Assembly: GCA_963849325.1 (NCBI GenBank)
Contig: CAWKHF010000005.1
Location: forward strand, 128,001 to 192,000
Origin: an uncultured Planctomycetota bacterium
Lineage (GTDB): Bacteria > Planctomycetota > Planctomycetia > Gemmatales > Gemmataceae
Direction: 5' to 3'
DNA: 64,000 bases
Shown here: positions 2,131 through 39,039 of the stretch, in pieces
How positions within the stretch are numbered: the stretch's first letter is position 1
How the letters are laid out: each line of letters begins with the position of its first letter
Program-made: the position numbers and the translations under genes
Notes under the pieces: model-generated
Told to the model about the DNA's origin: nothing
What the model saw: the letters and a program-made list of their open reading frames with translations, nothing else
Database searches by the model: none

Positions 2131-5100
2131 TTACGAGCTGGGCTGCTGCTGCAACAGCATGAAGAACGTTTCGACGCCGAAGATCTCCGCCTCCGGGGCC
2201 AACGATCCGGCGTACTGCGAGTTGAACGCGATGTCCGACTGTACCGCGCCGGTGGGCTGCCCGGTCACCAGGTCCAGCGCCAACATGAACCCGTCGAAGA
2301 AAATCGAGTACACGGCTTGGAGCTGGCTCGGCCCCGGACCCAGCGGTATCGGCGGCGGTGTGGGCGTCGGTGTTGGCGTCGGTGTCGGTGTCGGTGTCGG
2401 TGTGGGCGTTGGAGTGGGTGTCGGCGTGGGCGTCGGCGTCGGCGTGGGCGTCGGCGTACTGGTCGTGACGGTTAGCTGCCCGTTCGCGGTCTGGGCCAGG
2501 AAGTTGTTGCTGGGGCTGTCCGAGTACGTTTCCTGGATGGTATACGTGCCCGCGGCCACGTTCGCTTGCAGGATCAACGTCGCGGAAGCCAGGCCGCTGT
2601 TCACGTTGGCCGTCACCGGGCCGCCCAACACGTTGCTGTTTTGGTCGAGCACGGTGAACGTCACGGTGCCCTCGTTGACCGTTCCCTGGCTGGAGGAGAC
2701 CGTCGCACTGACCGACACGCTCTGGGATGTCGTGCTGGTGGGGACCGGAGTGACGGGGTTGGGCGTGAGGGTGACCGCGCTGGCGCTGATGCTCAGGGTC
2801 CCGACGGCGGTCTGGTCCTGCACGCTCTTGGTGGTGGTGTCGGTGAACTTCTCCAGAATGCTATACGTCCCCAGCGGCTGGCCGGCCGGGACGGTCAGGG
2901 TGCCGGTCGCCGTGCCGTTGGACACGTTGATCGGTCCGGTGCTGGCCAACGTGTTGTTGTTGCTATCGACCAGGGTGAAGGTCACGCCGCCCTCGTTGAC
3001 GGCCTGGCCGTTGGAGTTGGTGACCTTGGCCGTGACATTCACGGTCTGGGACGACAGGCTAAAGGGAACGGCGGCGTTGCCGGCCACGATGGTGTCGGTC
3101 CCCTGGTTGACGCTCAGTGTGCCGTAGGAACGTCACATTCTGGAAGTCGCCGCTGGCATCCTTGTAGGCTTCCTGGATGGTGTAGGCGCCGGGAGCCAGC
3201 CCGGCCGGCACCGTGTAGGTGGCGCTGGCTGCGCCGTTGGCGACCGTCGAACTGGTGACGGCCTGACCGATCGGGTTGCCACTGCTGTCCACCACGGTGA
3301 AGGTGACGTTGCCCTCGTTGATGGTGCCGGCGGGGCTGCTGAGGGTGATGTTGATCGGCACCGTCTGCGCGGACGTGCTATAGGGGACGGCGGCATTTTC
3401 GGGCGGCATGGTGACGAGGCCGCCGAGGACCGTCACCGGCGTCAGGGCCGTGGCGATGGTGACGTTGCTGGGAGGACCACCCACGCCGCCGAGTCCGCCG
3501 ATGTTGTAGATGGCCTCGACGTTATAGCTGCCCGGCGGCAGGTCGTTGATCGTGGTCGGCAGGGGAATCGAGCCGGTCGCCAAGCCGCCGGACGTGATGG
3601 GGACCGTCACCAACGTGTTGGCGATCGGATTGTGCAACGCGCTGTTATCGGTCAGCAGGAACGACACCGAACGAACCGTATTGGGATCGCCGGCGAGCTG
3701 GGAGGCGACCGTGGTGCTGTCGTCGGGGTTGGTAATGACCACCGAGACCGGCTCCGTCAGCGTCGTGCCGACGACAATGGTGGGCAGCGTCGCGGGCGCG
3801 AAGGCGAACGCATAGCCGCCGGCCACCGGCTGGAGCTGGTAGGCGCCGAGGTCGTCGTTGACGGCGGGGTTGCCGCTGCCCGTGGGCCGGGGCACGCCGC
3901 GCTGGTCCTGGCTGGTGGCGTTGCTGCCCTTGCCGATGATGTAGGTGGCGTCGGTGGTGTTGGTGTTCGTCGTGGGGATGGTGTAAGTGGGGCCGCCGTA
4001 GTTGCCCGGAGCCGTGAGGTCAAAGGGGTCGCCGTTGGTCACGCCCACGTAGTCGGTGGCGGCGCCGGTGGTGATGGTGCCGGCCAGGTCGGCCGAGGTG
4101 AAGGCGTTGTTTTGCGAAATGATGGAGTCGGTCACGGTGTTGCTGCCGCCGACCAGAAAGACGCCACCGCCGGTGGTGGTCCCGTTCGCGCCAGGGAGAC
4201 CGGATTGAGCTTTGCTGCCACCGCCGGGACGGCCGCCGATTCCGCCGATTCCGCCTACGGTGTTGTTGCCGGCGACCGTGAGGTTGAGGAAGGTGTTGGT
4301 GCCGCTGACGACGTTGATGCCTCCGGCCGTACCGTTGCCGCCGTTGCCGCCGTTGCCGCCGTTGCCGTTGCCCGCGCCGGTGGATTCCGGATTGGGAAAA
4401 GTCGGGGACCAGCCGCCACCGCCGGTGGCGGTGTTCTGGGCCACCGTGGTGCTGCTGACGGTCAGGGAGGCGTCGTTGGCGACGTAGAAGCCGCCGGCGG
4501 TGGCGTTGCCGCCGTTGCCGTTGCGGCCGCCGTCGGCGTTTTTGCCCCGGGCGTTGCTGCCCCAGCCACCCAGGCCGCCGCGCGCCTGATTGCCGAAGTT
4601 GAGGGGGTCGGGGCCGATCTCGCTGGCGCGCAAGGTCATGGTGCCCGAGCCGGTCAGGAAGACGCCGCCGCCCTGGCCGTCGCCGCCGTTGCCGCCGGCG
4701 CCGACAAGGCCCGTGGTGGCGCCCGGGCCCGCGTCGCCGCCGGCGCCGCCCTGAGCGACGTTGCCGGAGACGGACACGGCGACGAGGTTCACCGTGCCGC
4801 CGTTCAACCAAATGCCGCCGCCCTCGGCCTTGCCGCCGGGGGCGCCGTTGACGTTGACGGAGGTGAAGCCGTTGCCGCCCTCGCCGCCGGTGGCCGTATT
4901 GCCCGTGACCTCCAGCAGAGGGGTATTGAGCGTATCGACGTTAAAGTTGGGGGACAGGGCCGAGCCGGGTACGGCCGGCACGAGCGGCGATTTGGGAGCG
5001 ACATTGGTGTAGACGCTGGAGCCGAACGAGGCCAGTCCGCCGCCTTCGCCGATGCCGCCGCCCGTGGACGTGAGGCCCGGTTTTTTTTTGGCATTGAAGC

Positions 5101-5770
5101 CCAGCCCGCCCGTCGCGCTGTTGTTCTCCAGCGTTACATTGTCCAAGGTGAGCGTGCCGTTGAAAGTGAAAATCCCACCGCCGGCCGCGTTGCCGCCGTT
5201 CTGGAGGGCGCCTTTGGCCGTCGGCGTGCCATTGACGCCGGTGGCGTTGTTGTTCTCGAAAAGGTCGTTGCTGAGCGTCACGTTGCCATCGTCGTTGAGC
5301 AGGCCGCCGCCCAGGGCCGAAAAGCCGGCCAGCCCCAGCCCGCCTTCGTCGCCCGCCTTGCCGCCGCGGATGTTGAGGTTCTCCAGCACCACGTTGCTGC
5401 CGGGACCCACCTGAAAGATCCGCGACAGGCCCGTCTCGTTAATGGTCGTGCCCGGTCCGCCGCTGGCCGACAACTGACCCTGGATGATGATGGTATCCGT
5501 GGGGTTATCGATGACCAGCGGAGCTGAGGACGTTGTCAGCGTGATGACATTATTGGTTGCGAACGTGATCGTGAATGTGCCGCTGCTGTCGGCATTGGCC
5601 TGCTGGATCGCGGCGCACAGCGTGCCGGCACCCGAGTCGGCCGTACTGTTGACCGTGGCGCTGTTGCCCGAGGGCGTGATACGATCTTCCAGCACCTCCA
5701 GCAGAGGACGAAAGTAACGGGTTTTCCAGGGATTGTACGACTGAGGACGGCGCCGAGATAAGGGAAGCAT
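2131..5770 (-). CDS. Large exported Gly-rich protein: planctomycete leader, beta-helix-like GG repeats, DQRG...DLGAY domain, ~4 Ig-like repeats, short (PT)n and a diverged copy of the array C-terminal domain (frameshift near 3125)
   Basis: ORFs 3059-5770 and 2131-3087 join. Motifs: RPLLEVLEDRITPS, ADSGAGTL..AI..AN, repeated NEG.VTFT...G.YTI...Y units, ~17 PT units, then IFFDGF.L...QSDI.FN...AG...EIFG. Confidence 0.85.
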
Positions 5771-5954
5771 GACTAACCCTCAAGAGAGTTCAATCAGGAA
5801 GTGAACCTATTATTACCTGAGTTGCCCCATTAGTCGAGACCTCTTAACCGATTCTTTCCCTAGAATTGTGCTGTTCAGCTCGTGTTTCCCAGTCATCACA
5901 TCCGCTCCGAATGATAGTGAACGGATCGACACTTCTGCTACTCCGTTCCTCACT

Positions 5955-6173: not shown

Positions 6174-9100
6174 TTAGTGGTTGTTGTTGCCCCCTCCACT
6201 GGAACTGCCGCCGTTGGAACTGCTGCTAGTGGAATGGTTGAGGATGTTGAGGGCCAGTTCGACGCCGAGCAGTTCGAAGAACTGCCCGAACGGTCCGGCG
6301 GCCTGCAGGTTGACGGCGATGTCGGCTTGCACCAGCGAGCCTGCCGCCGAGTTTCCGGTCAGGATGTCGAACACAACGTCAAAGCCGTCGAAGATCAGCT
6401 GCAACTCCGGATTGGCAGCTGGCATGGGCGTCGGCGTCGGCGTCGGCGTGGGAGTGGGAGTGGGCGTCGGGGTCGGAGTGGGCGTCGGCGTCGGAGTGGG
6501 TGTCGGGGTGGGCGTCGGCGTCGGAGTGGGTGTCGGGGTGGGCGTCGGCGTCGGAGTGGGCGTCGGCGTGGGAGTCGGAGTGGGCGTCGGCGTGGGCGTC
6601 GGGGTTGGGGTCGGCGTCGGAGTGGGCGTCGGCGTGGGAGTCGGAGTGGGCGTCGGCGTGGGCGTCGGGGTTGGGGTCGGCGTCGGAGTGGGCGTCGGCG
6701 TGGGAGTCGGAGTGGGCGTCGGCGTGGGCGTCGGGGTTGGGGTCGGCGTCGGAGTGGGCGTCGGCGTCGGCGTCGGTGTTGGGGTCGGAGTTGGGGTCGG
6801 CGTCGGCGTCGGAGTGGGCGTCGGCGTCGGCGTCGGTGTCGGAGTCGGTGTCGGTGTCGGAGTGGGCGTGGGACTGAATTCGGTGGCGCCGATGTCGATG
6901 ATGGCACCCTTGCCGCCGTTGATGACACGCGGGAAGCCCGTGCCACGCTGATCGAACGGACCCGTCAATGCCGTCGCCGCGTTGTCACCCGCATCGATGC
7001 CCGGACTGCCCGACTGCAACAGGATGGTCTGCGTCAGACCACCGTTGTTGCCCAGCGTGCCAATGCCCGCGGCCACGTTGGTGATGTCGCCGTGCGCCGA
7101 GCTGAAGCCGAAGCTGCCGGCGGAGTTGCCGATCAGGTTGTGGTCGCTGCTGTTGACCGAACCGAAGTAATCCGGCGACGAGGCGGCGTTGTTGAGCGCC
7201 ACCAGCGTGTTGGTGAGGATGACGTTGGCATTGGCGTTGTTGAAGACGCCGCCGCCCTGGCCGACGACGGCGCCGCCCGCCGTGCCCGGCGTGCCCGGCT
7301 TGCCGCCCACGCCCGGAGGCGCGCCGGCATCGCCGCCGTTGCCGCCGAAGCCCTGCAACGCCGAGTTGTAAGCGACGGTGACGTTGGTCAGCGTGACGCC
7401 GCCGGTGCCGGGTGTTACCAGCACGAAGACGCCGCCGCCCTTGACGGCACCGCTGTTGCCGCCGGCGCCGCCGCTGCCGGCCGTGCCTTCCGTGGCCGAG
7501 CCACCCGTGCCGCCATTGCCGCCGTTGCCCGCCGTGGCGGTGTTGTTGGACATGGTCGAGTTGGTCAGTTGCGTCTGACCCGAGCCGAACAGGTACGCAC
7601 CGGCACCCTCGGCGATGCCGCCGGCGCCGCCGGTACCGCCGGCGCCGCCGACACCACCGTTGCCGCCGTTGCCGCCGTTGCCACCGACGCCGCCGGTGAC
7701 GGAGTTACCCGACAACGTCGAGTCGAAGATCTTGCTGGGCTGGCCGGTGCCGCTGTTGGTGACGTAGACGCCGCCGCCGTAGGCCGAGCCGCCGATGCCG
7801 CCGCCGCCCGCGCCGCTGCCCAGACCGAACCCGATCGAGGCACCCGCGCCGCCGTTGCCGCCGGCGCCGGCGGTGCTGAGGTTGCCCGTGACGGACGTGT
7901 TGGTGATGCTCAACTGCAACGTGGTCCCGGCCGCCCCGAAGAAGTCCACGCCGCCGCCGAACGTGCTGCCGCCGAAGCCGCCCTTGCCGCCCAGAGCGCC
8001 GGCCGAGTTGCTGGCGCCGCCGGTGCCGCCGGCGCCGCCGACATCGATGTTACCCGTGACGGTAGACTGATCGACGGACACCTTGAGGGTGCTGGCGCCG
8101 ACACTAAAGCCGCCGATGCCGCCGCCGCCGCCCGAGGCGCCCGAGCCGCCGACGCCGCCGCCGCTGGTCGCACCGCCGCCGGTCCCACCAGCGCCACCGT
8201 TACCGCCGGCGCCGCCGGTGACCGTGTTGGTTTGCACGGTCGTGCCCGCATTGACCGCCACGTTGAGAGTGGCGCCGCCCGTGGCCAACGCTTCGATGCC
8301 GCCACCGAAGCCAAAGCCACCCGTGCCGCCGACGCCGCCGCCGGAGCCGGCGCCGCTGAGTCCATTGCCTCCCGCTCCACCAGCCCCGCCCGTCACCGTG
8401 TTGCTCGACACCGTGCTAGCATTGCCCGTCGAGGTGGACTTGCCCACCGTCACGCTGCCGCCGCCGCTGAGGAACACGCCGCCGCCCTGCGCCGTACCGC
8501 CCGTGCCGCCGCCGCCGCCCTTGGCGCCGGCCGCCGTGGCCGCGAAGCCCTGGCCGCCCAGGCCGCCCTGGGCCGAGTTGCCCGTCACCGTCACGCCGGT
8601 CAGGCTCAACTGCATGGTGGCGCCGCTGACGTACAAGCCGCCGCCCTGCGCCCACCGCCGATCTGGCCGGCGATGCTGGTCTTGTTGCCGTTGGCTCCGC
8701 TGCCGCCGATCGCCTTGTTACCCGTGATCGAGCTGGCGTCCAGCGTTATCGAGTTGGAGGCCGCGGTGATGAGGACGCCGCCGCCCTCGCCGAAGCCGGC
8801 CGCCGCCCCGCCCGCGACGCCGTTGCCGCCCAGCGCCTGGTTGTTGCTGATGACCGTGCCGTTGACAACGGTCAACTGACCGCCGGAGACGAAGACGCCG
8901 CCGCCCTCGCCGTCCTTGCCGGCGTTGCCGACCGCCTTGTTGTTCTGCACGACGGCGTTGCTCAGCGTCACGTTGCCGCCCAGGTCGAGGATGGCACCGC
9001 CCCGCGCCTCCGTGTTCGTGGTCACGCCGTTGTCGTGGGCCGTGCCGTGCTGGAGGGTCAACGACTGGAAGGTCACGTTGGTCGGGCCGGTCAGCAGGAA

Positions 9101-9442
9101 GGCGCGGTTGTTGGCGCCGGCGGCGTCGAGGACAACGTCGCCGGCCTTGCCGGTGGCGCCCTGGATGACCAGCGTGTGCGGCGTCGTCACCGTCAACTGG
9201 CTGGACAGGTTGTAGGTGCCCGCCGACAGGACGATGGTGTTGGTCGCGTCGGAGGCCGGAGCGTTGACGGCGTTGATGGCCTGCTGGAGTTGCGTGGCGT
9301 TGCTGACGTCGAAGACCGCTGGCGCCAGACGCTCTTCCAGCGATTCCAGTCGCGGCAAGACCGTGCGTCGTGCCGGGGACCGCTGCACGCGGCCCTTCTG
9401 GCCCGGACTCGTGAACTTGCGGAGCCATTTGTTGCGAAGCAT
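6174..9442 (-). CDS. Gly-rich exported array protein 8: leader, beta-helix/GGx repeats, choice-of-anchor-Q-like DQRG domain, ~74 PT units, conserved C-terminal domain (frameshift near 8650)
   Basis: ORFs 8606-9442 and 6174-8636 are collinear with the intact paralogs; [23 protein letters not shown] leader. Confidence 0.9.
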
Positions 9443-9480
9443 AAGACACCTCCAGGATCAGGGGAATATGGGACAACACG

Positions 9481-9537
9481 TTACTGCGTCGAGATGGCCC
9501 GCGGGCGGGTTCGCCCGCGGGCCGAGGGTTACAGTAA
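9481..9537 (-). promoter_or_regulatory. Array 3' hairpin element, copy B
   Basis: 12-bp stem at 9496-9523 (loop GGTT) inside an outer TTACTG/CAGTAA pair; 28 nt from the stop at 9552. Confidence 0.75.
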
Positions 9538-9551
9538 GGGGCCGAGAGCAT

Positions 9552-12500
9552 TTAGTGGCTGTGGCCGTTGCTGGTGCTGCTACTGCTGCTGGTGCTGCTG
9601 GTGCTGCCGGTGCTGCTGGTGTTGTGGCTGAAGAGGTTGAGGGCCAACTGGATACCGAACAGCTCGAAGAACGGTCCGAACGGTCCAGCCGCCGCCAGGT
9701 TGACAGCGATGTCGCCCTGAATGGCGATTACCGCAGCCTGGTTGCCGATCAGGAAGTTGAACGCCAAGCTGAAGCCGTCGATGACCAACTGCAACGCTGG
9801 ATTGGCCGCCGCTGTCGGAGTGGGCGTCGGCGTCGGTGTCGGAGTGGGCGTCGGCGTCGGTGTCGGAGTGGGTGTCGGCGTCGGAGTTGGAGTGGGCGTC
9901 GGCGTCGGCGTCGGCGTCGGAGTTGGAGTGGGCGTCGGTGTCGGAGTGGGCGTCGGCGTCGGAGTTGGAGTGGGCGTCGGAGTGGGAGTGGGCGTCGGCG
10001 TCGGCGTCGGAGTTGGAGTGGGCGTCGGTGTCGGAGTGGGTGTCGGTGTCGGTGTCGGAGTGGGCGTCGGAGTTGGGGTTGGAGTGGGCGTCGGCGTCGG
10101 CGTCGGCGTCGGAGTTGGAGTGGGCGTCGGTGTCGGAGTGGGCGTCGGCGTTGGAGTGGGCGTCGGTGTCGGAGTGGGCGTCGGCGTCGGAGTGGGCGTC
10201 GGAGTGGGCGTCGGAGTGGGCGTCGGTGTGGGCGTCGGCGTCGGCGTTGGAGTGGGCGTCGGCGTTGGAGTGGGCGTCGGTGTCGGAGTGGGCGTCGGAG
10301 TGGGCGTCGGAGTGGGCGTGGAGCTGAACTCGGTGGCGCCGATGTCGATGATGGCACCCTTGCCGCCATTGAGGACACGCGGGAAGCCGGTGCCACGCTG
10401 ATCGAACGGACCCGTCAATGCCGTCGCCGCATTGTCCCCGGCGTCGATGGCCGGACTGCCGGCCAGCAGCAGGATCGTCTGCGTCAGACCGCCGTTGGCC
10501 GCCAGCGTGCCGATCAGCGGAGCGACGTTGAGGATGTCGCCGTGGGCCGAGCTGAAGCCGAAGCTGCCGCTGGCGTTGCCGATCAGGTTGTGGTCGCTGC
10601 TGTTGACCGAACCGAAGTAATCGGGAGCCAAGGCGGCGTTGTTGAGCGCCACCAAGGTGTTGGTCAGGATGGTATTGGCGTTGGCGTGGTTGTAGACGCC
10701 GCCGCCCGAACCGGCCACGGCGCCGCCGGCGGTGCCCGGCGTGCCGGGGAAGCCACCGACGCCCGGAGGCGCACCGGCGCCGCCGCCGCTGCCGCCGAAA
10801 CCCTGCACCGCGGAGTTGTAGGCGACGGTGACGTTGGTCAGCGTGATGCCGCCGGTGGCGGGCGTGGCCGAGACGTAGACGCCGCCGCCGATGACGATGC
10901 CGCTGTTGCCGCCGTTGCCGCCGTTGCCGGCGGTGCCGGTGCTCGCCGCTCCGCCGGTGCCACCGCTGCCGCCGTTGCCGGCGGTGGAGGTGTTGTTGGC
11001 CACCGTCGAGTTGGTCAGCTGCGTCTGACCGGAGCCGAACGAGAAGACGCCGCCGCCATCGCCGGCGCCGCCGGTGCCGCCATTGCCGCCGTTGCCGCCG
11101 TTGCCGCCGTTGCCGCCGTTGCCCCCAGCGCCGCCGGCGCCGCCGGTGGCGGAGTTGCCCGACACCGTCGAGTCGAAGAGCTTGCTGGCGGCGCCGGTGC
11201 CACTGTTGCTGAGACCGAGGCCGCCTCCCACGGCCACGCCGCCGGTGCCGCCGGCGCCGGCATTGCCGCCGGTGACGACCCCGACCGAAGCGCCGCGCCG
11301 CCGTTGCCGCCGGCGCCGGCCGTGATGCTGTTGCCGCTGACGGTGGTGCTGGTGATGCTGAACTGCGAGGTGGTGCCGGCGATGCCGAAAAAGGCTATGC
11401 CGCCGGAGATGGCGGTGCCGCCGGTGCCGCCCAGACCACCGAGGGCGCCCACCGAGTTGCTGGCGCCGCCGGTGCCGCCGGCGCCGGCCGTGACGCTGTT
11501 GCCGCTGACGGTGGACTGATCGACGCTCAACTGGATGGTGCCGGTCGGGTTGACACTCTCGGCCCGGATGCCGCCCGATTCGGCCCCACCGCCCTTGCCG
11601 CCGACGCCGCCCACGGAGCTGGTAGTGCCGGCGCTGCCGCCGGCGCCGCCGGCGCCGCCGACGCCGCCGGTGACGGTGTTGCCCTGCACGGTCGTCCCCG
11701 CGCCGACCGCCAGTTTCAGGGTCCCTCCCGTCGCCAGACCCTCGATACCGCCGCCGAAGGCGACGCCGCCGACGCCGCCCTTGCCGCCGGCCGAGCCGGC
11801 GCCGCTCATTCCGTTGCCTCCCGCTCCGCCGGCCCCGCCGACGACGAAGTTGCCCGACACGGTGGTTCCGTTGCCGGTCGAGCCAGACTTGCCGACGGTC
11901 ACGTTTCCGGTCCCGCTGATGAAGACGCCACCGCCCTGGGCCGTGTTGCCGGTGCCGCCGCCGGCGCCGCCGGCCTTGCCGGCCGCCGTGGCCGCGAAGC
12001 CCTGTCCGGCCTGTCCGCCCTGGACCGTGTTGCCCGTCAGCGTCACGCCGGTCAGGCCCAACACGATGTTGGTGCCGCTGACCCACATACCGCCGCCGTC
12101 GGCGAAGCCGCCGGGCTGGCCGGCGATGCTCGTCTTGGTACCGTTGGCGCCGCTGCCGCCGACCGCCTTGTTGCCGGTGATCGAGCTGGCGTCCAGCGAC
12201 ACCGGATTGGTGGTGCCCGAGACGTACGCGCCGCCGCCCTCGGCGAAGCCGGCTTGCACGCTGCCCGTGATGCCGTTACCGCCCAGCGCCTGGTTGCCGC
12301 TGATGACCGCGCCGTTGAGCACGGTCAACTGTCCGCCGGAGACGAACACGCCGCCACCCTTGGCCGCCAGGCCGGCGTTGGCGACGGCTTTGTTGTTCTG
12401 CACGACGGCATTGCTCAGCGTCACGTTGCCGCCCATGTCCAGGATGGCGCCGCCCTCGGCCGTCGTGTTGATGGCCACGCCGTTGTCGTGGGCCGTGCCA

Positions 12501-12892
12501 TGCTGGATGGTCAAGGACTGGAACGTCACGTTGGTGCCCGGATCGAGCAGGAAGGCGCGGTTGTTGGCACCGGCGGCGTCGAGGACAACGTCGCCGGCCT
12601 TGCCGGTGGCGCCCTGGATGACCAGCGTGTGCGGCGTCGTCACCGTCAACTGGTTGGACAGGTTGTAGGTGCCCGCCGACAGGACGATGGTGTTGGTCGC
12701 GTCGGAGGCCGGAGCGTTGACGGCGTTGATGGCCTGCTGGAGTTGGGTGGCGTTGCTGACGTCGAAGACCGCTGGCGCCAGACGCTCTTCCAGCGATTCC
12801 AGTCGCGGCAAGACCGTGCGTCGTGCCGAGGACCGCTGGGGACGGCCCTTACTCCGTCCCGCGAACTTGCGAAGCCATTCGTTGTGAAACAT
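9552..12892 (-). CDS. Gly-rich exported array protein 7 (~84 PT units; frameshift near 11295)
   Basis: Start [10 protein letters not shown] after TGGAGGAG; ORFs 11015-13084 and 9552-12086 join into a full paralog. Confidence 0.9.
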
Positions 12893-13157: not shown

Positions 13158-15692
<2,535 letters not shown>

Positions 15693-15950: not shown

Positions 15951-19121
<3,171 letters not shown>

Positions 19122-19231: not shown

Positions 19232-22474
<3,243 letters not shown>

Positions 22475-22528
22475 GCGAGACCTCCAAACTGAGGAAAACA
22501 GGATAGAAACACGTTACTGCGTCGAGGT

Positions 22529-22556
22529 GGCCCGCGGGCGGGTTCGCCCGCGGACC
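22529..22556 (-). promoter_or_regulatory. Array 3' hairpin element, copy F
   Basis: 12-bp stem with one mRNA-strand U-G pair; 28 nt from the stop at 22585. Confidence 0.75.
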
Positions 22557-22584
22557 AAGGGTTACAGTTCGAGGGCCGACGGCA

Positions 22585-25650
<3,066 letters not shown>

Positions 25651-25694
25651 GAGGCTCCTTCACCACTGAGCGAAACAGGATGCTGCGTCGAGGT

Positions 25695-25722
25695 GGCCCG
25701 CGGGCGGGTTTGCCCGCGGGCC
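25695..25722 (-). promoter_or_regulatory. Array 3' hairpin element, copy G
   Basis: GGCCCGCGGGCG-GGTT-TGCCCGCGGGCC; 28 nt from the stop at 25751. Confidence 0.75.
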
Positions 25723-25750
25723 GAGGGTTACCGTTCGAGGGCCGACGACG

Positions 25751-28953
<3,203 letters not shown>

Positions 28954-29349: not shown

Positions 29350-32300
29350 TTAGTGGGTGCCGTTGCCAACACCGACGTTGCTTCCGCCCCCGCCGGAACT
29401 GGTGCTCCCGCCGCTCGTGCTGGTGTTGTGCGCGAAGGCGTTGATGGCCAGTTCGATGCCGAACAGCTCGAAGAACGGTCCGAACGGTCCGGCCGCCGGT
29501 AGGTTGACGGCGATGTCGGCCTGCACGCCGGCCGCCCCGGTCTGATTGCCGGTCAGCAGGTCGAGCACGAGGCTGAAACCGTCGAAGACCAACTGCAACG
29601 CCGGATTGGCCGCCACCGTCGGAGTGGGCGTCGGTGTCGGTGTCGGCGTTGGAGTGGGCGTTGGAGTGGGCGTCGGCGTCGGCGTTGGAGTCGGCGTGGG
29701 CGTTGGGGTTGGCGTCGGCGTCGGTGTTGGGGTCGGCGTCGGCGTCGGAGTGGGCGTCGGTGTTGGAGTTGGAGTTGGAGTCGGCGTCGGTGTCGGCGTC
29801 GGCGTCGGCGTTGGGGTCGGCGTCGGCGTCGGTGTTGGGGTCGGCGTCGGCGTTGGGGTCGGCGTCGGCGTTGGGGTCGGCGTCGGAGTGGGCGTCGGTG
29901 TTGGAGTTGGGGTCGGCGTCGGCGTCGGTGTTGGGGTCGGCGTCGGTGTTGGAGTCGGTGTCGGAGTGGGCGTGGGCGTGGGCGTGGGCGTGGGCGTTGG
30001 AGTGGGACTGAACTCGGTGGCGCCGATGTCGATGGTGGCACTCTTGCCGCCGTTGATGACTCGCGGGAAGCCGGTGCCACGCTGATCGAACGGACCCGTC
30101 AGGGCCGTCGCCGCGTTGTCACCCGCATCGATGCCAGGGCTGCCGGACAGGAGCAGGATGGTCTGTGTCAGACCACCGTTGTTGCCCAGCGTGCCAATGC
30201 CCGCGGCCACGTTGAGGATATCGCCGTGGGCCGTGCTGAAGCCGAAGCTGCCGGTGGCATTGCCGATCAGGTCGTGGTCGCTGCTGTTGACCGAACCGAA
30301 GTAATCGGCGGCAGAGGCCGCGTTGTTCAGCGCCACCAGCGTGTTGGTGAGGATGACGTTGGCGTTGGCATTGTTGAAGACGCCGCCGCCCTGGCCGGCC
30401 ACGGCCCCGCCGGCGGTGCCCGGCGTGCCCGGTGTGCCACCCACTCCCGGAGGCGCGCCGGCGTCGCCGCCGTTGCCGCCGAAGCCTTGGAGCGCCGCGT
30501 TGTAAGCGACGGTGACGTTGGTCAAGGTGACACCGCCGGTTCCGGGCGTGACCAGCACGAAGAGGCCGCCGCCCTTGACGGCGCCGCTGTTGCCGCCGTT
30601 GCCGCCGTTGCCGGCGGTGCTGGCGGTGGCCGAGCCACCCGTGCCGCCGTTGCCGCCGTTGCCGGCGGTGGCCGTGTTGGTGGACACGGTCGAGTTGGTC
30701 AGTTGCGTCTGACCCGAGCCGAACAGGAACGTGCCGGCACCCTCGGCGGAGCCGCCGATGCCGCCGCCGCCGCCCTTGCCACCGGCCTTGCCGTTGCCGC
30801 CGTTGCCGCCCGTGCCGCCGGCCCCGCCGGTGACGGAGTTGCCCGACAACGTCGAATCGAAGATCTTACTCGCCTGGCCGGTGCCGCTGTTGGTGACGAA
30901 GACGCCGCCGCCGTGGGCAAAGCCGCCCGCGCCGCCGACGCTACCGCCGCTGCCCAGGCCGGCCGCGGCCGTGGCCCCCGCACCGCCGTTGCCGCCGGCG
31001 CCGCCGGTGACGCTGTTGCCCGTGACGGACGTGTTCGTGATGGCGAACGACGAAGGCGTGCCGCCGACCGGGAAATAGTCGATGCCGCCGGCGAAGGTGT
31101 CGCCGCCGTCGCCGCCGGTGCCGCCCAGAGCGCCGGCCGTGTTGCTGGCGCCGCCGACGCCGCCGGCACCGCCGACGACCATGTTGCCCTGGACGGTAGA
31201 ACTGCCGAGCGTGAACTTTACCGTGCCGAAACCGTTGATGGCGATGCCGCCGGTGTCGCCCGTGCCGCCGGTGCCGCCGCCGCCGCCCGTGGTAATCAGC
31301 GTGCCGCCGGTGCCGCCAGCACCGCCGGCGCCGCCGGCGCCGCCCGTGGCCGAGTTCGTGTCCACCTGGGTGCCGGAGGTCACGTTGACGGTGAGCGTGT
31401 CTCCGCCTTTGGCCAAGGCATTGATGCCGGCGCCGAGCACGCCGCCGCCGTGGCCGCCGCTGCCGCCCGTCGAGCCGCCGCCACTCAGTCCGTTGCCTCC
31501 CGCTCCGCCGGCCCCGCCGATGACGAAGTTGCTCGACACCACGGTGGCGTTGCTGGTCGAGGTGGACGTGCCGACGGTCACGGTGCCGCCGCCGGTAATG
31601 AACACGCCACCGCCATGTGCCGAACCGCCGGTGCCGCCGCCGCCGCCGGACTTGCCGGCCGCCGTCGCCGCGAAGCCCTGTCCGGCCAGGCCGCCCTGGG
31701 CCGTGTTCCCTGTCAGCGTCACGCCGGTCAGGCTCAGCGACATGGTGGCGCTGCTGATCCACAGACCGCCGCCGTTGGCCGTCCCGCCGGCCTGACCCGT
31801 CGTACTGGTCTTGGTGCCGTTGGCGCCATTGCCGCCGATGGCCTTGTTGCCGGTAATCGAGCTGGCGTCCAGGGTCTGCGGATTGCTGGTGCCGACGATG
31901 AAGACGCCGCCGCCCTCGGCACTGCCGGCCAGCGCCCCGCCGGAGACACCGTTGCCGCCGACAGCCTGGTTGTTGCTAATGACCGTGCCGTTGACGACGG
32001 TCAACTGGCCGCCGGAGACGAACACGCCGCCGCCCTTGGCCGCCAAGCCGGCGTTGCCCAGAGCCTTGTTGTTCTGCACAACCACGTTGCTCAGCGTGAC
32101 GTTGCCGCCCAGATCGAGGATGGCGCCGCCCTCGGCCGTCGTGTTCACCAACACGCCGTTGTCATGGGCCGTGCCGTGCTGGATGGTCAACGCCTCGAAC
32201 GCCACGTTGGTCCCCGCGCCGAGGTTAAAAGCGCGGTTGTTGGCTCCCGCGGCATCAAGAATGACATCGGACGCCTTGCCGCTGGCGCCCTCGATAATCA

Positions 32301-32568
32301 AGGTGTGCGGCGTCGTCACCGACAACTGATTGGACAGGTTGTAGGTGCCCGTTGACAGGACGATGGTGTTGGTCGCATCCGAGGCCGGAGCGTTGACGGC
32401 GTTGATGGCCTGCTGGAGTTGGGTAGCGTTGCTAACGTCGAAGACCGCCGGCGCCAGACGCTCCTCCAGCGATTCCAGGAGCGGACGCACGCCGCGGCGC
32501 TTCTTAAGTCGCTGCGGCCGGCGCTTGCCCTGGCCCGCGAACTTGCGAAGCCATTCGTTGTGAAACAT
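29350..32568 (-). CDS. Gly-rich exported array protein 1 (~65 PT units)
   Basis: Intact ORF; start chosen at [10 protein letters not shown] after TGGAGG. Confidence 0.92.
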
Positions 32569-32702: not shown

Positions 32703-34950
32703 TCAGACCGGCACGCCCACATCCGCCGGCATCTCGTCGCCGGAACTGCTGGGGGTCGGAACGGACGCCAACCCCGGCAGCCGAGCGAACAAGGGCTGCA
32801 AGGCCGCTTCATAGTTGCGCCAGCGGTCGAGAGAGCGGCGATAAATGGGTTGCCGCACCTGCAAAAGGCTGGCGGTGCGAACCGGCCTCTCGGTGCGGTG
32901 GAACTCCAGGCAGGCCGGCTCCCACTCCAGGCCGCAGAAGGCGACGACGCGGCGGGCCACGCCTTCCAGGTCGTTGACCATGTCTTCGTAATCGACGGCC
33001 AGCACCGGCTGAGGCAGGGCGCGGCGCCAGTGCTCCATGACGCGCTGATACTGGCTGAAGCGCGACAGGATTTCCTCGAAATCGTTGGCCCAGGGAATGC
33101 GGCGGAACTGCGTCATCCAGCACGACACGGCCACGTCGCGCAGATCGCGGCGGCAGTCGATGAAGCGCCGCGCGGGAACAGGGCCGCCATCATACCGACA
33201 TAGAGGTAGTTGTCGGGCATCTTGTCCGTGACGCGCACGGCCGAGCCGTTCATGGCTTGCAGCTGGTCCAGGTGGTTGTGGGCCAGGCGTCGCAAGGCGT
33301 CGGCGTCGATGGCGGTCAGGATGTCAAAGGAGCGATTTTCGCAAGAGACGTCTTCGCCGCCGCCCAGCGCCGTGAAGTCTTCGCGGGCCAGGCGCAGCTC
33401 GCCGGCGCCGAAGACCTGCGAATGGCTGGCGAGAATCTGTTCGAGCAGCGTCGTGCCGGAGCGCGGCAGGCCGACGATGAAGACCGGCCGCTCGCTGTCC
33501 ACGCCCCAACCGCGCACGCGCTCGAACCACTCCGGGGTGAAGGTGGTCAGCAAGCGATCGACGAAGCCGACGTGGACGGCGGCGTTGTACGCTTCGCCGC
33601 GGAAACGCCGGACCTCGCGCTCGAGGCTGTTGGCCACCTGCAGGCGACGGGCCGCCTCGCCGTACTCGCGGCGAGCGTCGTGGACCTGGGCCAGCCCGAA
33701 GAGCAGACAGGCGCGGTCGGAATCGGCCACGCTGGCGTCGTCGGCCAACTGGCGCAGGGCGTCGAATTCGTCCTCGGGCAGCTTGTCGCGCAGCATGGTG
33801 GCGAGCCGGCCCAGGGCGACGCTATGCCGTGGATCGCAGCGGCGAGCGGCCCGGAACGTGGCCACCGCTTCTTCCTGCCGGTTCAATTCCAACTCGACTT
33901 CGCCCAGCGCCGCATGGATGTTGGGGTCGTTCGGCCGCAGCTGCAGCGCAGCCAGGTAGGTCGCACGGGACTCGTCCAGCCGGTTCTGTTCGTAGCGCAG
34001 GTTGCCCAGGCCGACGTAGGCTTCGACATAGCGCGGGTCGAGCTGCAAGGCGTTTTGGAAGTGATTTTCCGCCGTGACGTGGTCGCGCAGCTCGACCAGC
34101 GTGCAGGCGAGGTTGGTGTGGAACTGCGCCGAGTTCGGCTCCAGCCGCAATGCCTGGCGAAACCAGTTGGCGGCTTCCTCGGCCTTGCCCTCGTCGAGCA
34201 GGACCTGGCCGATGTTGTTGGATACCATGGGCACGTTCGGCGCCAGCCGTAGCGCCTCGACGTAGTGGGCCTTGGCCTGGTCGCGCTGGCCGAGGCGGCG
34301 CAGGACGTTGCCGAGGTTGTTCAAGGCCGGCGCGCTGCCGGGCTGGAGTCGGACGGCCTCGCGGCAATGGTGCAGGGCTTGTTGCGGCCGATCGCAGTCC
34401 AGCAACATCTGGCCGAGGTTGCCGTGAGCGAAGCCCAGCTGCGGGTTCACTTCCACGGCGCGACGGAAGTGAGCGATGGCCTGGTCGGCGTTGCCCAGGA
34501 CGCGGTGGGCGTTGCCGAGGTTGTTGTGGGCCACGGCGAAGTCCGGCCGATACGCGATGGCCTGCTCGAAGGCCCGCACCGCCTCGGTGGGCCGGCTCGT
34601 CTGCATCAGCAGCGTTCCCAGGCTGTTGGCCGCCTCGGGGTAGGCCGGCTGCAAGCGCAGGGCCAACTGGCAGCAAGCGATGGCCCGGTCGATCTGGCCG
34701 CACGCGCGGTACGCTTCGGCGAGGTTGCCGTGGTAGGGCGCCTGGCTTGGCTCCCGAGCGATGGCGCGCTCGATGAATTCGACGGCCTGTTGCGGTTGGC
34801 CGCCCTGCAGGGCCAGCACGCCCAGCAAGTGCAGGGCGTCCGTTTGTTCGGGTTGGACAGCGAGAACGTCGCGGTACAAGCATCGGCCTGAGCCAGTTCA
34901 CCGCGTTGATGATGGGACAACGCCGTCGCCAGCAAAGTTGCAATGTCCAT
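32703..34950 (-). CDS. TPR-repeat sulfotransferase (Sulfotransfer_3 / TPST-like); frameshifts near 34880 and 33165
   Basis: About 10 TPRs, 5'-PSB motif [29 protein letters not shown], then VAVSCW...VDYEDMV...[13 protein letters not shown] in the next frame; collinear with the paralog at 35508. Confidence 0.9.
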
Positions 34951-35186
34951 GAGATGTCAAGGTGCCTTCTCTGTTGATCCGTCCAAGGACGCCGATGGGC
35001 CTCGCGGTACGGACGACGGACGCAAGACGCAATCCGCGGCGATGAGCGGACGGGCCTCTGATGCGAATCCCGTTGGTTGACGTGGAGATCACTCGGACCG
35101 GGACGTCTGATCGGACTGCGCCGTCCATCAGGGCAGGACCGGGCGAACGCGATCATCCCGAACCCGTCGAGGAAGTCCAGGGGCAG

Positions 35187-35215
35187 AGTTTAGCTTCCCT
35201 TGGTCCCCCTGTCAA
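35187..35215 (-). promoter_or_regulatory. Sigma70-type promoter TTGACA-N17-TAAACT
   Basis: -35 at 35215-35210, -10 at 35192-35187, exact 17-nt spacer, AT-rich upstream tract in high-GC surroundings. Confidence 0.75.
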
Positions 35216-35252
35216 CCTATTTTCCTCAATTTTCACGTTTCATTGCGATTAC

Positions 35253-35283
35253 AATCAACAATATCTTCATAATCAACAATATC
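35253..35283. promoter_or_regulatory. 13-bp direct repeat AATCAACAATATC x2 (18-bp period), candidate regulator site
   Basis: Copies at 35253-35265 and 35271-35283, upstream of the promoter. Confidence 0.45.
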
Positions 35284-35391
35284 GATATGTGAATGGGGTA
35301 ATGGAGGATTATCCCGTGAATTGTAGGGAAATCACCACTCGTTTCGCCGCCACGCGCAGCTGCCGCGCGTCGCGGCTAAGTGTCCGTCCGG

Positions 35392-35510
35392 TAAGCCCCT
35401 CTCCCCCGCTTCGGGGGAGAGGGGTTGGGGTGAGGGGGTAGGTTTGTCGCGGCTTTTCCTCCCCCTCACCCCCTACCCCTCTCCCCCGAAGCGGGGGAGA
35501 GGGGGGCTTA
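35392..35510. repeat. REP-like doublet (CCCCTCTCCCCCGCTTCGGGGGAGAGGGG family)
   Basis: Two inverted hairpin units; same family as the interior of the 15805 MITE. Confidence 0.75.
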
Positions 35511-37676
35511 ATTGCAGTTGACGGAAGAGGGCGCTAGGGCCGGTTCGTAGTGCCGCCAGCGCACGACGGAGCGCGTGTAGACGGGCTGTCGGACCTGGGT
35601 GACGCTGGCGGTGCGGACGGGGCGCTGCGTGCGATAAAACTGCAAGCAGGCCGGCTCCCATTCCAGGCCGCACCACGCCACCAGCCGCCGAGCCACGCCC
35701 TCCAAGTCGCGCACCGTGTCTTCGTAAGAGACCTCCAGCACCGGCGCCGGCAGCACCCGCGCCCAGTGCGCCATGATGCGGCGGTAGTCGCGGAAGCGGG
35801 CGGCGATGTGATCGATGTCGTTGGCCCAGGGGACCTGACGGAAGTGCGTCATCCAGCACGACACGGCCACATCGCGGAGGTCACGGCGGCAGTGAATGAA
35901 GCGCACGCGCGGAAACAAGACGTGTAAGAGACCCAAATACATGTAATTGTCCGGCATCTTGTCCGTCACCCGCGCGGCCGTGGCGTTCAACCGCCCCAGC
36001 CGGTCGAGGTGGCGCGCGGCCAACCGCCGCACGTCGTCGCGGTCGAGGCGCTGGAGGGCGGCGAAGCACGCGGGTTCGTCGCCGCCGGGTTGCAGCGCCT
36101 CGAAGTCCTCGCGGCCCAGGCGCAGCTCGCCGGCGCCGAAGACCTGCGAATGGCTGGCGAGAACCTGTTCGAGCAGAGTCGTGCCGGAGCGCGGCAGACC
36201 GACGAGGAAGACCGGCCGCTCGCTATCAAGGCCCCAGCCGTCCACGCGCCGAAAGAACTCCGGCGCGAACGCCGACAACAGTTGATCGACGAAGCGTGTG
36301 TGGACCGCCGGATCCCAGCCCTGGCCGCGCTGCGCCCGCCAGGCACGTTCCAGCGCATGGGCCTGGCGGAGACATTCGCCGGCCTGCTCGTAGGCGCCGC
36401 GGGCATCGTGGACGTGAGCCAGGCCGAACAACAGGGCGGCCCGCTTGCCGTCGGACAGTAAGGGTTCGGCGGCCAGCTGTTGCATCGCCTGCCATTGCGG
36501 CTCCGGCATCCGGTCGCGCAGCAGGGTCGCCAGCTGTTCGTAGGCCGCCGTGTTCCGCGGGTCGTGCTGGATGGCCTGGCGCAGATGAGACTCGGCGGCG
36601 GGCAGATCGTTCAGCTCTTGCATCAGCTGGCCGAGGTTGCCGTGAGCGAGGGCCAGGTCCGGCTTCAACCGCAGTGCCTCGCGGTAGTGGGCGCGGGCCT
36701 CGTCGAAGCGGCCGCGCTCGTGCTCGACCCAACCCAGGCCGGCGTGGGCCTCGGCGCAACCGGGATGCAGACGCAGCGCCGTGCCGTAGCAGGCGACGGC
36801 CTCGTCGATCGCACCCTTCTCGCGCAGCGCGCCGCCTCGGTTGACGTGAAAGCGCGCGGTATTCGGTTCCAGGTTGATGGCCTGTTGATACCAGCGCAGG
36901 GCGTCGTCGAGAGCGCCCTCTTCCTCCAGGACCTGGCCGATGTTGTTGTGGAGCATGGCCAGGTTGGGTTCCAGGCGCAGCGCCTCGGCGTAACGGGCCT
37001 TGGCCTCGCCGAGTCGGCCCAGCTCGCGCAGCACGTTGCCGAGGTTGTTGCGGGCCGGGGCGGAGTTCGGTTGCAAGCGGACGGCGGCCTGGCAGTGCTC
37101 CAGCGCCTCGGCGAAGCGCTTTCGCTCCAGCAACATCTGTCCCAGGTTGCTTCGTGCCATCGGCAGGTCCGGGTCCAGCTCGACGGCGCGGTGGAAGTGC
37201 GTCAGCGCTTGCGGGACGTCGCCCAGCAGACGGTACGCATTACCGAGGTTATTGTGGGCCAGCGCGAAATCGGGCCGCAGACGCAGGGCGGCCTGGAGCG
37301 GCTCGACGGCGTCGGCGGGCCGGCCCTGGTCCATCCTCACCAGGCCGAGACTGTTGTGCGCCGCCGCGTAATCCGGCCGCAGTTGCAGGGCCACGCGGCA
37401 GCAGTTGGCGGCCAACTCGAACTCGCGGACGGCCCGGTACGCCTCGGCCAGGTTGGCGTGGAAGGCCGCCACGCTCGGCGAAACGCGGACGGCCCGGTCG
37501 ATCCACTCGATGGCGCTGCGTGCGTCGCCGCGCTGGAGGAATACCAGGCCCAGCAGGTGAAGCGCGTCGGCATGATCGGGCTGGGCCGCGAGGATTTCGC
37601 GGTACAGGCGCTCCGCCTGGTCCAGATCGCCGCGCCGATGATGGGCCAAGGCCGTCGCCAGAGGGGCCGATTCCAT
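35508..37676 (-). CDS. TPR-repeat sulfotransferase (Sulfotransfer_3 / TPST-like)
   Basis: 722 aa: TPR array, [53 protein letters not shown]. The last codons may be shifted by one missing C. Confidence 0.93.
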   Translation of the reverse strand: MESAPLATALAHHRRGDLDQAERLYREILAAQPDHADALHLLGLVFLQRGDARSAIEWIDRAVRVSPSVAAFHANLAEAYRAVREFELAANCCRVALQLRPDYAAAHNSLGLVRMDQGRPADAVEPLQAALRLRPDFALAHNNLGNAYRLLGDVPQALTHFHRAVELDPDLPMARSNLGQMLLERKRFAEALEHCQAAVRLQPNSAPARNNLGNVLRELGRLGEAKARYAEALRLEPNLAMLHNNIGQVLEEEGALDDALRWYQQAINLEPNTARFHVNRGGALREKGAIDEAVACYGTALRLHPGCAEAHAGLGWVEHERGRFDEARAHYREALRLKPDLALAHGNLGQLMQELNDLPAAESHLRQAIQHDPRNTAAYEQLATLLRDRMPEPQWQAMQQLAAEPLLSDGKRAALLFGLAHVHDARGAYEQAGECLRQAHALERAWRAQRGQGWDPAVHTRFVDQLLSAFAPEFFRRVDGWGLDSERPVFLVGLPRSGTTLLEQVLASHSQVFGAGELRLGREDFEALQPGGDEPACFAALQRLDRDDVRRLAARHLDRLGRLNATAARVTDKMPDNYMYLGLLHVLFPRVRFIHCRRDLRDVAVSCWMTHFRQVPWANDIDHIAARFRDYRRIMAHWARVLPAPVLEVSYEDTVRDLEGVARRLVAWCGLEWEPACLQFYRTQRPVRTASVTQVRQPVYTRSVVRWRHYEPALAPSSVNCN

Positions 37677-37911
37677 GATGCGTGTTCCCGTCGATCGGGT
37701 GTCGATCGCTACCCGTCAATTATTCCAGCCGGGAGACATTTCACAAACATAGCGGATGAAAAATCCATTGAAGCCGTGCCCCCAAGTGCGTACACTCAGT
37801 CAATTATCCACGAACGCGATCGCGGGGAAGCTCCGTCGAAGGAGACGGAAGACCATCGCCGCCGCGAGACGGTTCGATCCGAACGGGGAACAGCCAGAAA
37901 GAGAGCCTCGT

Positions 37912-39039
37912 ATGTCCAACTGGAACCAGGGAGACTTCATCTTCGCCAACGTCGCCGGCCTCGGCACCGCTCCCAACAGCCGGCCGGTGACGCCCGATTG
38001 GCGGCGCTGGATCGCCGAGAACGTACTGCTCAACCGCGACCGTCAGATGCTCATCGACGCCATGATGCGCAACGGCTTCGACCGCGGCACGGTCCTGCAG
38101 GAGCTGGCGCCGCCGAGACGCATCCGTACATTGAGGCGGCGCTCGGCCGCGTCCATCCTGACGGCGGCGCCGGCCCCGGCCGCGCCTGCCGCGCCCGCCG
38201 CCGTCGAGAACAAGATCAAGAAGCGCGATTGGATCCTGGAGATCTATCGCCGTTCGGCCCGCCAGGCCAGCACCTTCGGCGCGGTGCCGCGCGTCCGCCG
38301 GCCGTCGCGCCAGGAGTTCCTCGATCAATTTTATTCGCGCAACCAACCGTGCATCATCGAAGGCGCCACCGACGATTGGCCGGCCCGCACGCGCTGGACG
38401 CCCGAATACTTCAAACAGCGTCTCGGCGACCGCCTCGTCGAGGTCCAGGCCAACCGCAACTCCGACCCCAATTACGAGATCAACTCGACCAAGTTCAAGA
38501 AAGAGATGCGCTTCGGCGACTTCGTGGACGTGGTCGAGTCCGCCGGCGAGACCAACGATTGGTACATCACGGCCAACAACGACGGCAAGAACAAGGAGAA
38601 CCTCAAGGAACTGTGGGAAGACGTCATCCAGGTGCCCGAGTACCTGCGCGACGACGATCCCAAGGGCAAGGGCTTCTTCTGGTACGGCCCGGCCGGCACG
38701 GTGACGCCGCTGCACCACGACCTGACCAACAACTTCATGGCCATGGTTCGCGGCCGCAAGCTCATTCGTCTAATCGCTCCTTATGAGATGGCCGATGTCT
38801 ACAATCATCGCCACTGCTTCTCGCAGGTGGACCTCGACCACATCGATTACGACAAGTTCCCGCAGTTCCGCAACGTCAAGGTGATCAACGTGGTCATCAA
38901 TCCCGGCGACCTGTTCTTCCTGCCGGTCGGTTGGTGGCACTACGTCCGCGGCCTGGACATCACCGTGACGATGACGTTCACCAACTTCGTCTTCGAGAAC
39001 GATTTTTACGCACAGTACACGACCTACGGCGAGATTTAA
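37912..39039 (+). CDS. JmjC / cupin_8 Fe(II)-2-oxoglutarate hydroxylase with a helical N-terminal extension
   Basis: NQPCII...DWPA...WT..YF, TPLHHD (HxD), GRKLIRL, FSQVD, PGDLFFLPVGWWHYV (third His). Possible compensating indels at ~38108-38155. Confidence 0.9.
   Translation: MSNWNQGDFIFANVAGLGTAPNSRPVTPDWRRWIAENVLLNRDRQMLIDAMMRNGFDRGTVLQELAPPRRIRTLRRRSAASILTAAPAPAAPAAPAAVENKIKKRDWILEIYRRSARQASTFGAVPRVRRPSRQEFLDQFYSRNQPCIIEGATDDWPARTRWTPEYFKQRLGDRLVEVQANRNSDPNYEINSTKFKKEMRFGDFVDVVESAGETNDWYITANNDGKNKENLKELWEDVIQVPEYLRDDDPKGKGFFWYGPAGTVTPLHHDLTNNFMAMVRGRKLIRLIAPYEMADVYNHRHCFSQVDLDHIDYDKFPQFRNVKVINVVINPGDLFFLPVGWWHYVRGLDITVTMTFTNFVFENDFYAQYTTYGEI

Follow-up and report, generated by a model that had tools for sequence, protein, structure and literature searches.

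Very few substrates of protein sulfation have been demonstrated in bacteria, most of them small peptides such as RaxX. Large adhesins are known to be modified with sugars; dedicated cytoplasmic glycosyltransferases, such as the heptosyltransferases Aah and TibC and the enzyme HMW1C, are encoded beside the beta-helical adhesins that they modify before export. In this work we describe a locus that recalls both situations. It lies in a 64,000-nucleotide stretch of the genome of an uncultured planctomycete of the Gemmataceae (contig CAWKHF010000005.1, G000:C5:128001-192000, hereafter the window; the assembly is 8.16 Mb in 14 contigs and 84.7% complete). Two genes for sulfotransferases with N-terminal tetratricopeptide repeats (TPRs) are followed on the same strand by an array of nine genes for glycine-rich proteins with a predicted export leader. 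This neighbourhood is more than chance, as its recurrence in other genomes illustrates.

The precedent for cytoplasmic sulfation before secretion is RaxST (PMC9372746, which also holds an unpublished remark that we count as precedent for the idea). In the raxX-raxSTAB locus of Xanthomonas (10.1101/149930, as far as its accessible text goes, and PMC9372746), as in ours, a TPST-like enzyme without a signal peptide is encoded beside an exported protein, and we propose the same cytoplasmic sulfation prior to secretion here. However, our enzyme carries ~11 N-terminal TPRs, and it is paired not with a 60-residue peptide but with beta-helix proteins of 800-2400 residues that have a planctomycete leader. 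The interval from parB to asnS, the genes on either side of the locus, contains neither a transporter gene nor a gene for such a peptide. A computational study, PMC2938197, predicts in its accessible part that co-encoded enzymes first hydroxylate and then sulfate secreted proteins of two kinds, glycine-rich collagen-like ones and tail-collar ones. As there, a sulfotransferase is co-encoded here with a secreted glycine-rich protein, with head regions that are 25-28% Gly and preceded by an export leader. The repeats are GGx, though, and not the Gxx pattern of collagen, and our locus has no linked gene of the beta-hydroxylase or phytanoyl-CoA-hydroxylase families; it has only a JmjC gene that is not kept at other loci.

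The animal enzymes TPST1 and TPST2 and the tick TPST (PDB 5wri, 3ap3, 8w5z) are the best sequence and fold matches of our catalytic domain, with the binding motifs for the donor 3'-phosphoadenosine 5'-phosphosulfate (PAPS) and the Glu base aligned. That said, identity is just ~20-23%, the animal enzymes have a Golgi anchor where ours are soluble TPR fusions, and a likely acceptor-binding segment of ours, CWMTxFRxIxWAND, is without counterpart in the TPST alignment. The arrangement of a long TPR array ahead of a transferase domain is shared with OGT, but the donor of OGT and of the adhesin glycosyltransferases is a nucleotide sugar, not PAPS. Our literature search, thin in subscription papers, found no description of a TPR-fused sulfotransferase paired with such proteins, and the gene neighbourhoods in the supplement of PMC2938197 may include such loci. 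The first-pass annotation of this DNA had proposed an undescribed system, which is too strong: the general idea has precedents in raxX-raxSTAB and PMC2938197.

The nine glycine-rich genes occupy 2131-32568 of the window, all in the same orientation on the minus strand. Eight are paralogs, their head regions 72-90% identical at the DNA level; the ninth is a relative at 50-53%. Upstream on the same strand are two genes that join TPRs to a Sulfotransfer_3 domain. Sulfotransferase 1 (35508-37676) is intact, with 722 residues forming ~11 TPRs and then the TPST-like domain. Sulfotransferase 2 (32703-34950) is frameshifted, and a gap of 134 nt separates its end from the first array gene. A gene for a JmjC (Cupin_8) oxygenase (37912-39039) lies on the plus strand and diverges from all of these. 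The locus is flanked by parB and a tRNA-Pro on one side and by asnS on the other. The layout first read from this sequence, eight paralogs and one relative behind two TPR-sulfotransferases with a divergent JmjC gene, is therefore confirmed.

One argument that enzyme and array belong together comes from the rest of the genome. Six TPR-sulfotransferase genes are found at five loci, each of which adjoins a co-oriented glycine-rich leader protein; a stricter repeat motif recovers 4/5, missing the partner on contig C4, whose loops differ. By chance, a random 2.2-kb gene would lie within 3 kb of a glycine-hairpin cluster 0.44% of the time. As controls, none of the four non-TPR Sulfotransfer_3 genes of the genome is near a glycine-hairpin gene, and neither are the TPR-GT9 genes on contig C6, which are >420 kb from any such cluster. 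In a tree of the enzymes, the intact sulfotransferase 1 is sister to the paralog on C4, and the broken sulfotransferase 2 groups with enzymes at the parB-linked site of relatives; these positions exclude a local duplication as the origin of the two.

The pairing extends well beyond this genome. Within the genus, where the enzyme is present in 10/10 genomes, 15 close orthologs have a glycine-rich neighbour, one has none and four are cut by contig ends. For a wider set we pooled 125 distinct genes, 25 of which went unscored owing to short flanks, leaving 100 scorable homologs. Gene ends were approximated in this set, and sulfotransferase 1 was relabelled by hand as paired, sulfotransferase 2 lying between it and the array. 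A glycine-rich gene adjoins 39 of the 100, six of these 39 being from the genome described here; it is co-oriented in 36 cases and within 1.3 kb in 38. In a held-out set such a gene was found within 760 nt of 6/20 homologs, and at 4.9 kb from one more. The pairs come from records labelled Gemmataceae, Thermoguttaceae, Pirellulales, Planctomycetaceae and Tepidisphaeraceae, and they are scattered over the enzyme tree, across several families and a second class, with the partner upstream, downstream or divergent. At the level of whole genomes, the array-protein family is present in 20/22 genomes with the enzyme compared with 11/39 without an enzyme match, a contrast to be read with the provisos that kin genomes are not independent and that the family profile also matches glycine-poor members. 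Furthermore, 21 of the 25 genomes whose enzyme had no such neighbour hold the family elsewhere. The tie between TPR-sulfotransferases and array proteins that the first-pass annotation suspected is supported by the counts for the own loci, the scorable homologs and the held-out set. The neighbourhood comparison across Planctomycetota that it called for comes out positive for the sulfotransferase and negative for the JmjC gene.

The site next to parB is a cassette with lineage-specific tandem expansion, the enzyme having two companions of this kind in G006, nine here and about 11 in G007. In G007, a genome of the same genus (C4; L161-L162), the sulfotransferase is embedded among the roughly eleven family members, next to parB. 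Another genome of that genus, G002, has about nine family members on C2 (L163-L164), with no sulfotransferase in the fetched 40 kb.

Homologs with 32-43% identity to the enzyme also occur in Proteobacteria. Among 25 matching plasmid records we inspected eight, picked to cover each distinct group, and in five of these the enzyme adjoins an autotransporter or a type I-secreted cadherin adhesin; two carry cysC, which encodes APS (adenosine 5'-phosphosulfate) kinase. For example, a Comamonas plasmid (L152, 1-15562) encodes a giant cadherin adhesin, the enzyme, TolC/ABC/HlyD components and cysC, an operon that resembles raxSTAB but would serve a large adhesin. Enterobacter has the enzyme with a GT8 gene and an autotransporter, Ralstonia an autotransporter-like gene followed by the enzyme and cysC, and in Thalassospira and Pacificitalea an autotransporter lies next to the enzyme (these other paired loci are L150 7939-14152, L153 5939-9933, L154 2629-9801 and L165 4811-12597). 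The inspected Methylovirgula, Komagataeibacter and Cereibacter loci have no adjoining exported protein. Because the four proteobacterial partners counted contain no GGxGG, what the pairings have in common is an exported surface protein; glycine hairpins are not shared by all.

Clues to what the enzymes may do come from their catalytic domain. Its best solved match by sequence is the tick TPST (E 1.5e-6). In a predicted structure (predicted local distance difference test, pLDDT, 93.3) the domain is about equally similar to TPST1 (Z 21.5, root-mean-square deviation (rmsd) 2.9, 233 aligned), the tick TPST (21.4) and TPST2 (21.4), with an olefin synthase domain (18.1) next; every listed glycan sulfotransferase falls behind the TPSTs. 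Residues R496, E517, K573, R598, S606 and S691 are invariant in 48 sequences and align to the tick enzyme, and by analogy with TPST we take them to include the PAPS-binding Arg and Ser, the Glu base and the Lys. These presumed roles agree with the definition of TPST/RaxST enzymes by PAPS-binding motifs and a His/Glu base in the accessible text of 10.1101/149930, and our sequences have both motifs, with the invariant Arg/Lys and Ser, and the base between them. An APS kinase is encoded in the genome. The enzymes are presumably cytoplasmic, as the N-terminus begins directly with a TPR. A Foldseek search with the whole enzyme model is dominated by TPR matches, and the closest natural match of the TPR array is OGT, a protein with an asparagine ladder; in most of our repeats an Asn precedes Leu-Gly. 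In fold, sequence match and invariant residues, then, the TPR-sulfotransferases look like active, cytoplasmic TPST-like enzymes, much as the first reading of them had it.

The proteins of the array are likely exported to the cell surface. All 9/9 have the motif LExLExRxxP after a basic stretch at the N-terminus, and in its longer form, LxLExLExRxxP, it matches the planctomycete leader motif described as a probable export signal in the accessible text of PMC8567305, where 20/52 leader proteins were detected, eight of them in the sodium dodecyl sulfate (SDS) fraction only. A Pfam scan of the window proteins returned no leader family of the PF07595 type. The intact heads have 775-818 residues, with 25-28% Gly, ~20% Ser+Thr, 8% Asn and 3-12 Tyr. 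An AlphaFold2 model of the head of copy 1 (814 residues, from an alignment of 69 sequences) has a mean pLDDT of 95.7 and a predicted template modelling score (pTM) of 0.94. It begins with a capping helix, followed by repeating short strands, and each turn is broken once by a 25-30-residue segment that is neither helix nor strand, yet is modelled with high confidence. The head is accordingly predicted to be a right-handed beta-helix of around a dozen turns, most of which carry an ordered GGx hairpin of 25-30 residues. Among solved structures it is matched best by other right-handed beta-helices, a tailspike (Z 20.7, rmsd 3.0, 427 aligned) and the Vag8 autotransporter (Z 19.1). No solved structure that we compared covers the glycine hairpins, which is not evidence of a new fold.

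The inserts follow the pattern NxAxGGxGGxGG-turn-GGxGGxGGxAxGGG, and GGX triplets are, in the accessible part of PMC13243192, the pattern of polyglycine II bundles; by this analogy the hairpins may be polyglycine II. The GGx triplets are shared with the glycine-rich domains of PE_PGRS proteins, and the helix is shared with choice-of-anchor Q and Chlamydia-Pmp-like proteins: the end of the head matches the choice-of-anchor Q model NF041518 (52.7 bits in copy 1 and 51.7 in copy 6, cut-off 25; no match in the divergent relative), and atlas neighbours carry Beta_helix (PF13229) and Chlam_PMP (PF02415). Our proteins differ from either group in being predicted hybrids, with a GGx hairpin on each turn of the beta-helix, and the longest alignment to a solved structure covers 427 of 814 residues. 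The family is broad: of 8000 candidates scored, 148 are homologs at E 1e-10. The pairing also points to an uncharacterised surface-protein fold, a beta-helix with stacked glycine hairpins, that has been expanded into arrays in Gemmataceae.

Taking the pairing and the predicted structures together, we propose that the TPR-sulfotransferases directly O-sulfate native hydroxyls of the array proteins in the cytoplasm before export, a reading to which we give an even chance. The enzymes would be dedicated and cytoplasmic, and would move sulfate from PAPS onto native hydroxyl side chains with no need for a hydroxylase step. Their OGT-like TPR superhelix may hold the unfolded chain; the sulfated proteins would then likely be exported by means of the planctomycete leader and fold into the predicted beta-helical surface proteins. 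One enzyme may also serve family members encoded elsewhere in the genome. The product would be a set of variable, sulfated adhesin-like proteins, presented here on Pro-Thr stalks. If true, dedicated adhesin modification extends from sugars to sulfate. Many proteins are annotated as 'Tetratricopeptide repeat-containing sulfotransferase family protein' without a known substrate, and a conserved pairing with large surface proteins gives this family a testable substrate class.

Candidate acceptors of such sulfation are Tyr and Ser/Thr. The catalytic fold points to Tyr as the acceptor, but the heads hold only 3-12 Tyr against ~20% Ser+Thr; a Tyr acceptor would therefore mean few marks per chain, and a polyanionic coat could arise only via Ser/Thr. 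Asp-Tyr, the preferred site of the animal TPSTs, occurs in 8/8 paralogs. Unlinked members of the family have it too, however, and most linked partners lack it, which speaks against a conserved acceptor. Thr in the Pro-Thr stalk had been put forward as a sulfation target, and as a conserved target it is not borne out in relatives, where none of 44 partner reading frames has a stalk. In composition, linked and unlinked family members of the genome show no clear difference (13 versus 8 proteins, several of them cut by frameshifts). A more ambitious version of direct sulfation, which we regard as unlikely, is that the TPR-sulfotransferases are a widespread, adhesin-dedicated class that threads unfolded chains through an OGT-like TPR superhelix for many-site Ser/Thr sulfation of autotransporters, type I-secreted adhesins and planctomycete leader proteins, which in Planctomycetota would turn beta-helix/polyglycine-II hybrids into a glycan-free, sulfated, mucin-like coat.

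Several observations weigh against direct sulfation, the support for which is all genomic or predicted. The OGT likeness of the TPR array is not specific, because consensus TPRs share the Asn-Leu-Gly pattern. On the tree the pairing label changes 12 times, compared with a shuffled mean of 31, so the 39 pairs are far from independent and represent about a dozen events at most. A clade of 32 enzymes has no scored partner, and two of its loci (L096, L117) have GT41 genes; in a clade without glycine-rich partners, enzymes also occur in tandem pairs or triplets (L096, L101, L109, L110, L115, L117, L120, L126, L130, L132). The held-out set has 14/20 homologs without a glycine-rich neighbour, the family persists in the 11 enzyme-negative genomes mentioned above, and the proteobacterial partners lack GGxGG. 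Further points on this side also favour a functional pairing in which the array proteins are not the substrate: the TPRs could chaperone glycine-rich chains for export, the enzymes could sulfate another component of the same surface structure, be it polysaccharide, lipid or small molecule, or the cassette could simply be passed on as a unit. Thus 61 of the 100 scorable homologs have no glycine-rich gene in the fetched flank (just five of these 61 have another leader protein adjacent), arrays occur without an enzyme nearby (four genes on C1 of the same genome, about nine on C2 of G002), and no conserved acceptor motif tracks with linkage. Polyketides and cyclic peptides are, moreover, among the substrates of TPST-like folds (CurM and olefin synthase domains; the accessible part of PMC11143521). 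We consider this family of explanations possible but doubtful, since the pairing persists across changes of gene order, it recurs in Proteobacteria with unrelated exported proteins and export routes, and polysaccharide or secondary-metabolite genes were not seen at the paired loci inspected.

A different substrate would be a glycan: a cytoplasmic glycosyltransferase would attach a sugar to the array proteins, on Ser/Thr or on the Pro-Thr stalk, and the sulfotransferases would then sulfate it. The Ser+Thr content of the heads and the long stalks of seven paralogs would suit such a scheme, and some homologs do lie beside glycosyltransferase genes (GT8 in the Enterobacter cassette, GT41 at L096 and L117). 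We nevertheless think it improbable. The array locus has no glycosyltransferase, GT41 was not found in the genome (84.7% complete; the control matched in 2/14 genomes), and the TPR-GT9 genes are far from any glycine-hairpin cluster. Only 5/135 fetched sulfotransferase loci have a GT41 or GT9 match, just one of them with a glycine-rich partner, while the stalk is missing from relatives, and the catalytic fold is nearer to TPSTs than to any listed glycan sulfotransferase. Least probable is the original suggestion, in which hydroxylation of Asn in GGN repeats by the JmjC enzyme would create the hydroxyls that the sulfotransferases then use. It draws on the divergent gene, whose HxD...H triad is intact, on Asn as the middle residue of 22-24% of GGxGG and on the two-step scheme predicted for other bacterial operons in the accessible part of PMC2938197. 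However, no JmjC homolog was found in the other fetched sulfotransferase loci (sets of 38, 77 and 20, the first two overlapping), and 0/5 JmjC orthologs, two of them on short contigs, have a TPR-sulfotransferase or glycine-hairpin gene as neighbour. Close orthologs are also rare, in 1/60 relatives, 2/251 genomes of the family and 3/400 of the phylum, set against an enzyme found throughout the genus. The role of the JmjC protein as hydroxylating partner is not sustained by these counts, and among characterised enzymes it is closer to JMJD5 (E 1.5e-41) than to FIH (E 6e-19). A metagenome scan for orthologs gave only 16 distant matches (23-34% identity), 2OG-FeII_Oxy_5 was not found in the genome, and a genome search with Asp_Arg_Hydrox gave no match, with an equally silent control, so that it is uninformative. 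The JmjC gene is probably not part of the sulfotransferase-array system. The enzyme may still modify proteins, a point that can be made in favour of the two-step scheme: the neighbours of the ortholog in G006 (L010:1-16371, G006:C141) are a pair of giant TPR-GT9 genes, DUF6065 and DUF6165 genes and the gene of a Calx-beta leader protein, and the group may be a parallel cassette that glycosylates and hydroxylates some other surface protein. The runs on which the two-step scheme leaned are few, with 0-3 GGNGGNGG runs per head in five intact copies where many had been claimed; GGNGG occurs 5-7 times per head in the four copies counted, and Ala (28%) ranks ahead of Asn (24%) and Thr (21%) as the middle residue of GGxGG.

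The individual array genes, all on the minus strand, differ mainly beyond the head. Copy 1 (29350-32568) is intact, with 1072 residues that comprise the leader, the predicted beta-helix with glycine hairpins, the choice-of-anchor Q domain, 65 Pro-Thr units and a C-terminal hydrophobic domain. Stalks of 47-84 units are present in 7/8 paralogs: 69 in copy 2 (25751-28953), 47 in copy 3 (22585-25650), 72 in copy 4 (19232-22474), 61 in copy 5 (15951-19121), 84 in copy 7 (9552-12892) and 74 in copy 8 (6174-9442). Copies 3, 4 and 5 are intact, as is copy 6 (13158-15692, 844 residues), in which a His-Asp repeat tail (13158-13254), possibly a metal-binding end, takes the place of the stalk and C-terminal domain. 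The divergent relative (2131-5770) has the leader, a shorter glycine-rich beta-helix, immunoglobulin-like (MG2-like) repeats, 16 Pro-Thr units and the C-terminal domain. This domain, QLxxDGFxLxxDxLxGN...GPFGxFFELFG, makes up the C-terminal 60-80 residues in seven paralogs and in the relative, and is found in 11 leader proteins of the genome, including those at C1:495300-504664 and C2:109123-110961. In copy 1 it has no Pfam or NCBIfam match, and it is a candidate anchor or sorting signal.

Some of these genes are broken. Four of the nine array genes have one net frameshift each (near 27349 in copy 2, 11294 in copy 7, 8652 in copy 8 and 3100 in the relative) and sulfotransferase 2 has two (near 34885 and 33170). 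Such breaks are common in this assembly, with 26 frameshifts in 62 kb affecting 19/45 ordinary conserved genes. At 6 frameshifts in ~36 kb the locus is below the genome-wide 0.42 per kb, which speaks against pseudogenes or programmed shifts, and because the locus lies within the genome-wide rate the breaks are probably assembly errors. In three paralogous sulfotransferases the breaks fall close to the same GC-rich codons, probably through systematic sequencing error.

Between the genes, each of the eight paralogs is followed directly on its 3' side, on the minus strand, by an element of 75 nt that has a GC hairpin of 11-12 bp (e.g. 9477-9551, 22510-22585 and 25676-25750). The eight copies, between which there is one compensatory change, have no U tail and no counterpart elsewhere in the genome. 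In relatives, weaker matches follow the glycine-rich gene at two loci that are linked to a sulfotransferase (L029:14055-14113 and L019:17423-17477). At the Rfam gathering score, positions 1-42000 gave a single tRNA and no family for the hairpin, which could be an mRNA-stabilising or processing element. Upstream of sulfotransferase 2, a sigma-70-like promoter sequence, TTGACA-17-TAAACT (35187-35215, minus strand), is a consensus match only.

Elsewhere in the genome, a non-TPR Sulfotransfer_3 gene stands directly before a 3200-residue leader protein with 19% Gly and no GGxGG (G000:C4:449000-455100). The array of Asn-rich and Pro-rich proteins described above is flanked in the window by asnS (39365-40756) and tRNA-Pro(TGG) (1468-1543); this is probably incidental, because asnS was not found at other fetched sulfotransferase loci. 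Finally, the far end of the window (55461-63998) holds co-oriented TPR-CHAT, caspase-DUF4384 and trypsin-HEAT-caspase-FGE genes, a module of the protease signalling type.

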